From: a virus
Virus genome (UHGV): UHGV-0211073
Reading direction: 5' to 3' (one strand)
Length of the DNA stretch: 17,979 nucleotides
The notes beneath the pieces are model-generated. The model worked only from the letters and a program-made list of their open reading frames with translations. It was not told the origin of the DNA and did not search any database. Position 1 is the stretch's first letter; the number at the start of each line of letters is the position of its first letter. Made by a program: the position numbers and the translations under genes. Positions 10,129 through 10,992 of this stretch are shown in pieces.

Positions 10129-10611
10129 ATGTCGAATACATCTGCACATGCCCTCTTGAAAGATATCTGGGGCGATAGGAAATTCCCGGTTGATCCAGTA
10201 TGGATTGCCAATGAGTTAGGGTTGGATGTTGTTGAAACCACGCTTGATGATGATGTTTCAGGCGCATTGCTGAAAGAGCCAGAACAAGATCCAGTAATCA
10301 TACTCAATCGTAATGATAGTAACGTGCGCAAACGATTTACGTGTGCGCATGAGTTAGGGCATTACGTCAAACGAACTGAGAACGGTCAGCCACTTGAATA
10401 TGAGTTTGTTGATTACCGCGGAAAACTGGCAAGCCAAGGTGTAGACAGCGAAGAAATATTCGCCAATAACTTTGCAGCATGTCTTCTCATGCCAGAAAAA
10501 GAGGTTCGACGCCTCAACAATGCAGGATATGCACCAGTAATGATGGCTTCCTATTTTGGTGTATCCGATGATGCTATACGTTATCGCCTAAAGAATTTAG
10601 GGCTTCGATGA
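10129..10611 (+). CDS. ImmA/IrrE-family (M78-like) zinc metallopeptidase
   Basis: HEXXH motif 'CAHELGHY'. Strong RBS AAGGAGGTG 4-12 nt upstream of the ATG at 10129 (preferred over the GTG at 10123). Size and N-terminal region fit the ImmA/IrrE (COG2856-like) architecture. Confidence 0.8.
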   Translation: MSNTSAHALLKDIWGDRKFPVDPVWIANELGLDVVETTLDDDVSGALLKEPEQDPVIILNRNDSNVRKRFTCAHELGHYVKRTENGQPLEYEFVDYRGKLASQGVDSEEIFANNFAACLLMPEKEVRRLNNAGYAPVMMASYFGVSDDAIRYRLKNLGLR

Positions 10612-10614
10612 GTA

Positions 10615-10992
10615 ATGACGTCTAGATCTTACGCTATATCTGAAAAACTAAAGCAAGCGGCAAGACAAGCCAGAGGTGAACCAGCCTCTGGCTCATCTCC
10701 ATCAGCAAAAACCCTCACACATCTAAATGATAAGGATCCAGCCAAAGCCCATCAGCGTGCAAAAACAAAAGATTTAAAAACAGACACAAAACTGAAAAAA
10801 ATGTTTGCTCGGTGGTTTATCGGCATTCTGATAGGCCAGCTATTAGTTATGAATGGGATTTTTGTCCTTATTGGAGCAAAACTGCTCCATTTTAGTGATT
10901 TCGTTATAAACCTATTTATGGGGGGAACCCTCGCTGAAGTCTTTGGCATTGTTTTAGTGATGGCACGCTACCTGTTCTCCAAGCACGTCTAA
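10615..10992 (+). CDS. Small membrane protein (125 aa): basic hydrophilic N-terminus, two C-terminal TM helices
   Basis: ATG 4 nt after the peptidase stop (operonic). N-terminus K/R/S/T-rich. C-terminal hydrophobic segments 'WFIGILIGQLLVMNGIFVLIGAKLL' and 'LFMGGTLAEVFGIVLVMARYLF'. Confidence 0.6.
   Translation: MTSRSYAISEKLKQAARQARGEPASGSSPSAKTLTHLNDKDPAKAHQRAKTKDLKTDTKLKKMFARWFIGILIGQLLVMNGIFVLIGAKLLHFSDFVINLFMGGTLAEVFGIVLVMARYLFSKHV

Follow-up and report, generated by a model that had tools for sequence, protein, structure and literature searches.

The two adjacent genes at positions 10129 to 10992 most probably constitute a RosmerTA-type toxin–antitoxin cassette, carried as cargo by an integrative, satellite-like element of Escherichia coli. 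This assignment is built on the anatomy of the pair, the co-occurrence and co-divergence of its two genes, their homology to two genes of Gordonia phage Kita, the conserved catalytic residues of the peptidase and a genomic slot in which the pair is exchanged for Abi genes. Toxicity, neutralisation and defence would be expected of the E. coli pair by analogy with the Kita homologue.

Anatomy of the two genes

The upstream gene encodes a short metallopeptidase. Positions refer to the window, which is the whole 17,979-bp stretch of DNA that was analysed.

10118..10123, + strand: Shine–Dalgarno sequence AGGAGG of the peptidase gene, seen in the sequence itself and separated by 5 nt from the ATG at 10129
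10129..10611, + strand: peptidase CDS, 160 aa, stand-alone M78 (ImmA/IrrE) zinc metallopeptidase; predicted antitoxin, RmrA-like
10348..10362, + strand: HEXXH zinc-binding/catalytic motif (H74, E75, L, G, H78), invariant in alignments of 26 and of 30 homologues
10453..10455, + strand: E109, probably the third ligand of the zinc, within the motif E..AN.FA..LLMP, which is invariant (no variation in this column in alignments A4 and A5)
10534..10596, + strand: helix-turn-helix-like C-terminal helix pair within the M78 domain, residues 136-156 (AlphaFold2 helices H136-143 and H147-156)

Peptidase_M78 (PF06114, E 9e-20) is the sole Pfam family found in the peptidase, and an identical RefSeq gene (WP_000072645.1) is annotated as ImmA/IrrE family metallo-endopeptidase. 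An earlier reading of this DNA, made from the sequence only, had described an HEXXH peptidase with a strong ribosome binding site, and the intact motif and the AGGAGG sequence agree with this. Of 117 full-length homologues 115 keep the HEXXH motif, as do the peptidases at 42 of the 43 loci with a membrane gene. The role of E109 in zinc binding is presumed from what is known of the M78 family. In the C-terminal helix pair, residues V145, S146, A149, R153 and L157 are invariant in the homologue alignments.

The AlphaFold2 model of the peptidase has a pLDDT of 88, and its nearest folds in the PDB are CapP (7t5t) and PprI/IrrE (TMq 0.68, TMt 0.42). These matches span the whole query. They cover less than half of each target, as the peptidase has no counterpart of the C-terminal GAF-like domain found in CapP and PprI/IrrE. 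A sequence search of the PDB matched CapP alone (E 0.005). CapP is also the top PADLOC match of the peptidase (8e-25, positions 10-150 of 242 in the profile). Fifteen PADLOC RmrA models match it as well, the best at 8.8e-14, covering the peptidase part only (approximately 163-292 of 357-400).

An imperfect 17-nt direct repeat has the copies GGTGAAAATTTCGACTA (10086-10102) and GGTGAACATGTCGAATA (10122-10138), 36 nt apart. The second copy overlaps the ribosome binding site and the start codon. The repeat may be an operator or may be due to chance; it was set aside as operator evidence since two-copy short repeats often arise by chance. Scanning for promoters and terminators gave no signal above shuffled controls, and the sole promoter-like site, which overlaps the ribosome binding site region, is not relied on.

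The downstream gene starts 3 nt past the peptidase stop codon. The 4 nt given in the sequence-only reading runs to the first base of the ATG, and the tight spacing stands.

10615..10992, + strand: 125-aa two-pass membrane protein (WP_000204055.1); predicted pore-forming or depolarising toxin, RmrT D5-like
10771..10812, + strand: juxtamembrane motif D..TDT.LKK.(Y/F)A, residues 53-66, conserved; candidate recognition or cleavage site
10807..10875, + strand: TM helix 1, approximately residues 65-87, with conserved polar Q75 and N80 (hydropathy, AlphaFold2, alignment A1)
10900..10968, + strand: TM helix 2, approximately residues 96-118, with an invariant G104-T105 and E108-x-F110-G111 motif (hydropathy, AlphaFold2, alignment A1)

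The basic N-terminus and the two C-terminal TM helices proposed for this protein are both recovered. Its N-terminal 64 residues carry a net charge of +9 and are predicted to be mostly disordered, Kyte-Doolittle analysis finds hydrophobic segments at approximately 65-88 and 96-118, and AlphaFold2 (pLDDT 66) models a disordered tail followed by a helical hairpin (H42-87 and H95-122). Both termini are predicted to be cytoplasmic from the positive-inside rule. In the juxtamembrane motif, D57, L60 and A65 are invariant and D53, K61 and K62 nearly so (alignment A1). Among homologues the C-terminal 75 residues are conserved, with the pattern D..TDT.LKK.YA.WFIGILIGQL..MN ... GGTLAEVFG...RYLF, and the N-termini are variable.

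A profile search of 1.84 billion proteins returned 1,461 cluster representatives of the membrane-protein family at E<=1e-3, all of them small and conserved in their C-terminal part. HMM and phmmer matches in other phyla range from 1e-17 to 1e-46. The 125-aa ORF is thus a real gene, and the conservation on which its earlier description depended is found. It matches phrog_5346 (7e-23) and no family of Pfam, NCBIfam or PADLOC (the last at E<=0.1). Longer members of the family, of 201-204 aa, were compared with the same three collections and showed no domain and no hidden HTH. In our phage collection, neither tblastn of the membrane protein nor megablast of the region gave a match.

Homology to the RosmerTA system of Gordonia phage Kita

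When an actinobacterial relative of the peptidase was compared with the phage collection by tblastn, it matched gene 32 of Gordonia phage Kita. The product, gp32, is a 178-aa M78 peptidase, and its gene overlaps by 4 nt with that of gp33, a protein of 119 aa. The two proteins are RmrA(D25) (YP_009301393.1) and RmrT(D5) (YP_009301394.1), with the accessions confirmed in the supplement of Ernits et al. 2023 (PMC10440598). The E. coli peptidase is 43% identical to Kita RmrA over 160 aa, its full length (BLASTP, E 3e-44), and the catalytic motifs are common to both. The toxin homology is remote, with 26% identity to Kita RmrT, and was detected by profile methods. An HMM of about 200 members of the membrane family matches Kita RmrT with 38.0 bits (E 1.5e-10, 2,128 ORFs searched), with the next match at E ~1. 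In hhalign, the membrane-protein profile aligns with Kita RmrT over 74 columns that include both TM helices (79% probability, E 1.6e-5). The T..EV.G motif of TM helix 2 is also present in Kita RmrT.

Kita RmrT has a C-terminal membrane region and causes an immediate shutdown of growth and macromolecular synthesis (PMC10440598). Produced alone, it causes rapid depolarisation and membrane permeabilisation or pore formation; its neutralisation by RmrA is only partial, and the Kita operon protects E. coli against the BASEL phages Bas54 and Bas59 (PMC10440598). The two pairs share their layout, a short stand-alone M78 peptidase first and a protein of about 120 aa with a C-terminal hairpin second, overlapping or nearly so, and both are carried by mobile elements. 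They differ in that the Kita pair belongs to a phage of Actinobacteria and the E. coli pair to an island of Enterobacteria. Furthermore, the E. coli pair is missed by the PADLOC RmrT models and is known from sequence alone.

The RmrA match and the HMM and hhalign matches to RmrT mean that both genes are homologous to a tested system, in the same order and with the same spacing. The sequence features of the Kita type (NetFlax D25:D5) are found in E. coli: full-length antitoxin homology, toxin homology that includes the C-terminal TM region, and an antitoxin-first bicistron. As judged from these sequence features, the E. coli pair is a further member of the Kita D25:D5 subtype of RosmerTA, and its architecture is not new. 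The E. coli accessions were not found in the portion of the NetFlax supplements that was compared. The proposal of a membrane effector within a toxin-like module, or one for abortive infection, is supported by homology to the tested Kita proteins. The further proposal that a membrane partner is unusual is not supported, since this pairing has already been described as RosmerTA, with ImmA-type antitoxins and diverse toxins, the present membrane toxin family (NetFlax D25:D5) among them.

Conservation and decay of the pair

Homologues of the membrane protein are encoded at the 43 loci that were compared, 30 genomic and 13 from viral contigs. The genomic loci come from Gamma- and Betaproteobacteria, Nitrospirota, Desulfobacterota, a Bacillota MAG and Balneola. 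The question raised at the outset was whether the membrane gene always adjoins an M78 peptidase. In all 43 loci the gene immediately upstream, in the same orientation, encodes a close relative from the same peptidase subfamily (phmmer 1e-29 to 1e-70), and in 42 the two genes are separated by -4 to +15 nt. The pairwise identities of the two proteins correlate (Mantel r 0.78), with none of 2000 permutations reaching a value as high. The pairing is far beyond chance. A search begun from the peptidase added 11 further loci with the membrane gene downstream, on viral, metagenome or genome contigs, with peptidases that are 50-57% identical.

The flanks of the pair differ from locus to locus and include genes for tRNA synthetases, ThiG and SurA, phage Mu and P2 genes, and integrases. 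Among 113 neighbouring genes of 32 non-redundant loci (55 upstream, 58 downstream), no HTH is found among the families matched by more than one neighbour. Known defence genes form a minority of the neighbours (MzaA, MADS, ATPase-Toprim, methyltransferases), a modest enrichment in raw counts. The unrelated flanks, the lack of a recurrent HTH and the presence of some defence genes nearby indicate that the pair is an autonomous, mobile two-gene module.

The two genes are not lost symmetrically. The membrane gene is frameshifted or absent next to an intact peptidase gene in L024, L053 and L061-63, and the survey contains no locus with a membrane gene and no adjacent peptidase gene. One peptidase, P0075, whose active site is degenerate, is not followed by a membrane gene. 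This asymmetric decay fits a toxin and its antitoxin. In L025, a low-coverage contig of a Methylococcaceae MAG, the peptidase (3618-4121) reads CARELGRY for CAHELGHY, with both zinc-ligand histidines replaced by arginine, and the downstream membrane gene looks intact; if real, the change argues against an absolute need for catalysis, or else marks a locus in decay. In L061-L063, three related metagenome contigs, a frameshift splits the membrane gene between its TM helices (approximately 3512-3945 in L061) beside an intact peptidase gene, which marks either a pseudogene or a site of recoding.

The decay pattern also bears on a reading with the reverse polarity. Here the membrane protein would be an inert pro-effector until the peptidase, as sensor and activator, detects for example single-stranded DNA and removes the N-terminal tail. 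CapP and PprI are activated by single-stranded DNA; the closest solved folds of the peptidase are CapP and PprI/IrrE, one of them solved with single-stranded DNA. The catalytic residues are invariant, and the long, disordered tail of the membrane protein varies among homologues, as an inhibitory segment meant for removal might. However, the full-length Kita membrane protein is toxic alone and its peptidase lowers this toxicity, the decayed loci retain the peptidase and never the membrane gene by itself, and the GAF-like domain of CapP and IrrE is missing. We therefore regard such activation as unlikely. The sequence-only reading had called the effector protease-gated; the direction of this gating is unproven, and in Kita the peptidase neutralises the toxin and does not activate it.

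Related peptidases also occur with other partners. In an actinobacterial prophage (L056), a related peptidase (1305-1829) is followed by a 142-aa membrane protein (1822-2250) with an 8-nt overlap. In a P2-like phage (L066), another (2989-3474) is followed after a 211-nt gap by a 160-aa protein with hydrophobic segments (3686-4165). Both partner proteins are without detectable similarity to the 125-aa family, which suggests that the peptidase swaps partners among different membrane toxins.

The integrative element and its cargo slot

The window is a complete E. coli integrative element of 17,979 bp in circularly permuted form. Positions 1-12476 correspond to L001:7002-19477 and positions 12469-17979 to L001:1491-7001 of the E. 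coli PA45B chromosome, where the element sits between yicC and dinD. The two matches overlap by 8 bp at 12469-12476, which is probably the attachment (att) core, and the integrase gene is found at 12594-13946. The pair is present in 69 of 5,426 complete E. coli genomes, always chromosomal, in single copy and at least 99.6% identical. The flanking backbone sequence, including the PerC gene and others, is present in 549 genomes.

Alignment with sibling elements delimits the following cassette.

9743..11017, + strand: swappable cargo cassette of approximately 1.3 kb, comprising the pair with some 385 bp upstream of it (delimited by blastn against sibling elements of E. coli)

The siblings cease to align at 9742 (L067) or 9681 (L068), and homology returns at 11018 or 11030. 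In E. coli A20 the slot holds an Abi family gene, a pseudogene (L067:2753-3715), and in E. coli MS 21-1 a 73-aa ORF. Abi genes recur in the slot across the sampled sibling matches; other small ORFs also occupy it. The interval of approximately 9742-11018 is a defence-cargo hotspot of E. coli integrative elements, and the placement of the pair in a cargo region, already proposed from the sequence, is confirmed by this replacement.

A 147-aa gene (11009-11452, - strand) is convergent with the pair, 16 nt away, and has an RHH-like N-terminus (phrog_30270, 3e-4) and a weak recombinase-HTH-like C-terminus. It was considered as a DNA-binding partner and rejected: it is a conserved backbone gene that is present in siblings without the pair and is therefore not a dedicated partner. 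With no HTH gene next to the pair in the window and none recurring at other loci, the earlier statement that the peptidase has no dedicated HTH partner holds.

The sibling elements are informative for another reading, in which the peptidase would be an ImmA-like anti-repressor for the element or a helper phage. It would cleave an HTH repressor encoded elsewhere, with the membrane protein as tether or regulator. Such cleavage is the canonical role of M78 peptidases (ImmA/ImmR, IrrE/DdrO, CapP/CapH), and the element does encode HTH and antirepressor genes in other places. Against it, no HTH gene recurs beside the pair, many loci lie amid housekeeping genes and outside the control regions of mobile elements, and E. 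coli siblings with the same backbone carry an Abi gene in place of the pair. Since these siblings do without the pair, control of the element is independent of it, and we consider an anti-repressor role quite improbable.

The rest of the element is an odd set of genes for a satellite-like island, with integrase, excisionase-like HTH, primase-helicase, antirepressor and PerC. Beside the variable slot, a 141-aa multi-pass membrane protein (8822-9247, - strand) is conserved in sibling elements; its matches to Bax1-I and the CBO0543 family (4e-5 each) are weak and below threshold. Two genes on the + strand (5345-6700 and 6685-8802) encode homologues of phage ejection/DNA-transfer proteins (phrog_917, 4e-132; phrog_6704, 7e-175; phrog_770), and no capsid, terminase or tail family was found among the 17 ORFs scanned against PHROGs. 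Two Rfam matches exceed the gathering score, the Hfq-binding sRNA isrK (17110-17187, + strand, 67.8 bits) and the C4 antisense RNA (17250-17337, + strand, 79.9 bits). Both lie inside a 355-aa ORF (16729-17796; 'ash family protein' in RefSeq) downstream of an AntA/AntB antirepressor gene. This ORF may be over-called, or the region may hold a P1/P7-like sRNA-based immunity switch.

The ejection protein homologues lend some weight to superinfection exclusion, in which a non-toxic membrane protein would block entry of phage DNA and the peptidase would mature it or turn it over. Small prophage-encoded membrane proteins often mediate superinfection exclusion, and M78 genes occur near Sie/Ltp genes in some Gram-positive prophages. 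However, the homologous Kita protein depolarises membranes and halts growth at once, and strict coupling with asymmetric decay fits a toxin and antitoxin better. Exclusion of this kind is very improbable in our judgement, and the toxin–antitoxin reading is retained below.

Proposed mechanism

In the proposed mechanism, the upstream, translationally coupled M78 peptidase would be the antitoxin and would be made first. The 125-aa protein would be inserted in the inner membrane, its N- and C-termini facing the cytoplasm; if unrestrained, it would depolarise or permeabilise the membrane, acting as toxin and effector at once. The peptidase would most likely target the cytoplasmic N-terminal tail or the juxtamembrane motif of the toxin, by cleavage or by binding. 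Phage infection would upset the balance, and the toxin would then stop the infected cell by abortive infection.

The invariant catalytic residues suggest that proteolysis matters, and the juxtamembrane motif and the cytoplasmic tail are the candidate substrates. Related RosmerTA systems render ClpP or ClpX essential, which hints that host proteolysis takes part. A more specific version is conceivable, though less likely than not: the HTH-less peptidase would cut the cytoplasmic tail of the toxin directly and would itself sense infection, for example through single-stranded DNA or a phage protein, as in CapP/PprI. If true, the pair would be a protease–substrate toxin–antitoxin system with no DNA-binding component, with a mode of neutralisation and triggering so far undemonstrated for any toxin–antitoxin or RosmerTA system.

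Comparison with other known systems

The canonical RosmerTA system (Millman et al. 2022; RmrT/RmrA in PADLOC and DefenseFinder) is likewise a two-gene toxin–antitoxin defence system with a Zn-peptidase antitoxin (M78/COG2856) and a variable toxin. Its RmrA has about 360-400 aa with an N-terminal XRE HTH, whereas the E. coli peptidase has 160 aa and is HTH-less; the toxin families are others, and the gene order varies. Measured against the canonical definition, the E. coli pair has the Zn-peptidase and lacks both the XRE-type HTH and a match to the RmrT models, which is the reason why its annotation stays at peptidase and hypothetical protein. According to the NetFlax paper, an HTH is frequent in RmrA but not universal.

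CapH/CapP (a CBASS regulator), ImmR/ImmA of ICEBs1 and DdrO/IrrE-PprI of Deinococcus share the M78 fold and the catalytic HEXXH motif with the E. coli peptidase, and CapP is its best match in PADLOC, in PDB sequences and in fold. Their peptidases cleave an adjacent HTH repressor, whereas the E. coli partner is a membrane protein, and CapP and IrrE possess the additional GAF-like domain at the C-terminus. With HTH substrate and GAF-like domain both absent, the pair is not of the ImmR/ImmA or CapH/CapP type.

PanA-PanT(D11) and other type II toxin–antitoxin systems with small depolarising toxins resemble the E. coli pair in their toxins, which have an unstructured N-terminus and a short helix followed by TM helices; the likeness is one of description. 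The PanA-type antitoxin is thought to contact the cytoplasmic N-terminal part of its toxin. It is, however, a Panacea (DUF4065) domain and no protease. PD-lambda-2 (Vassallo et al. 2022) is an E. coli defence system with an ImmA/IrrE peptidase domain, but it comprises three genes, and its peptidase, which is toxic in its own right, is fused to an Xre HTH; the partner is HigB-like. The ClpP-dependent toxin–antitoxin pair of E. coli E101 (Rousset et al. preprint) was also considered; its toxin is different and its genes stand in the reverse order, so that the resemblance is one of kind only.

Implications for E. coli and the RosmerTA family

The analysis offers a likely function for two E. coli genes annotated as ImmA/IrrE peptidase and hypothetical protein, and identifies a further defence-cargo slot among related E. 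coli integrative elements. The family of the membrane toxin is large, with more than 1,400 clusters at 50% identity, and widely distributed; it is missed by Pfam, NCBIfam, PADLOC and current models for finding defence systems. What novelty remains lies in the manner in which a stand-alone protease controls a membrane toxin. Because the pair is minimal, lacking an HTH and any additional domain, and occurs naturally in E. coli, it would be a convenient model for how an M78 antitoxin restrains a membrane toxin and how infection is sensed.
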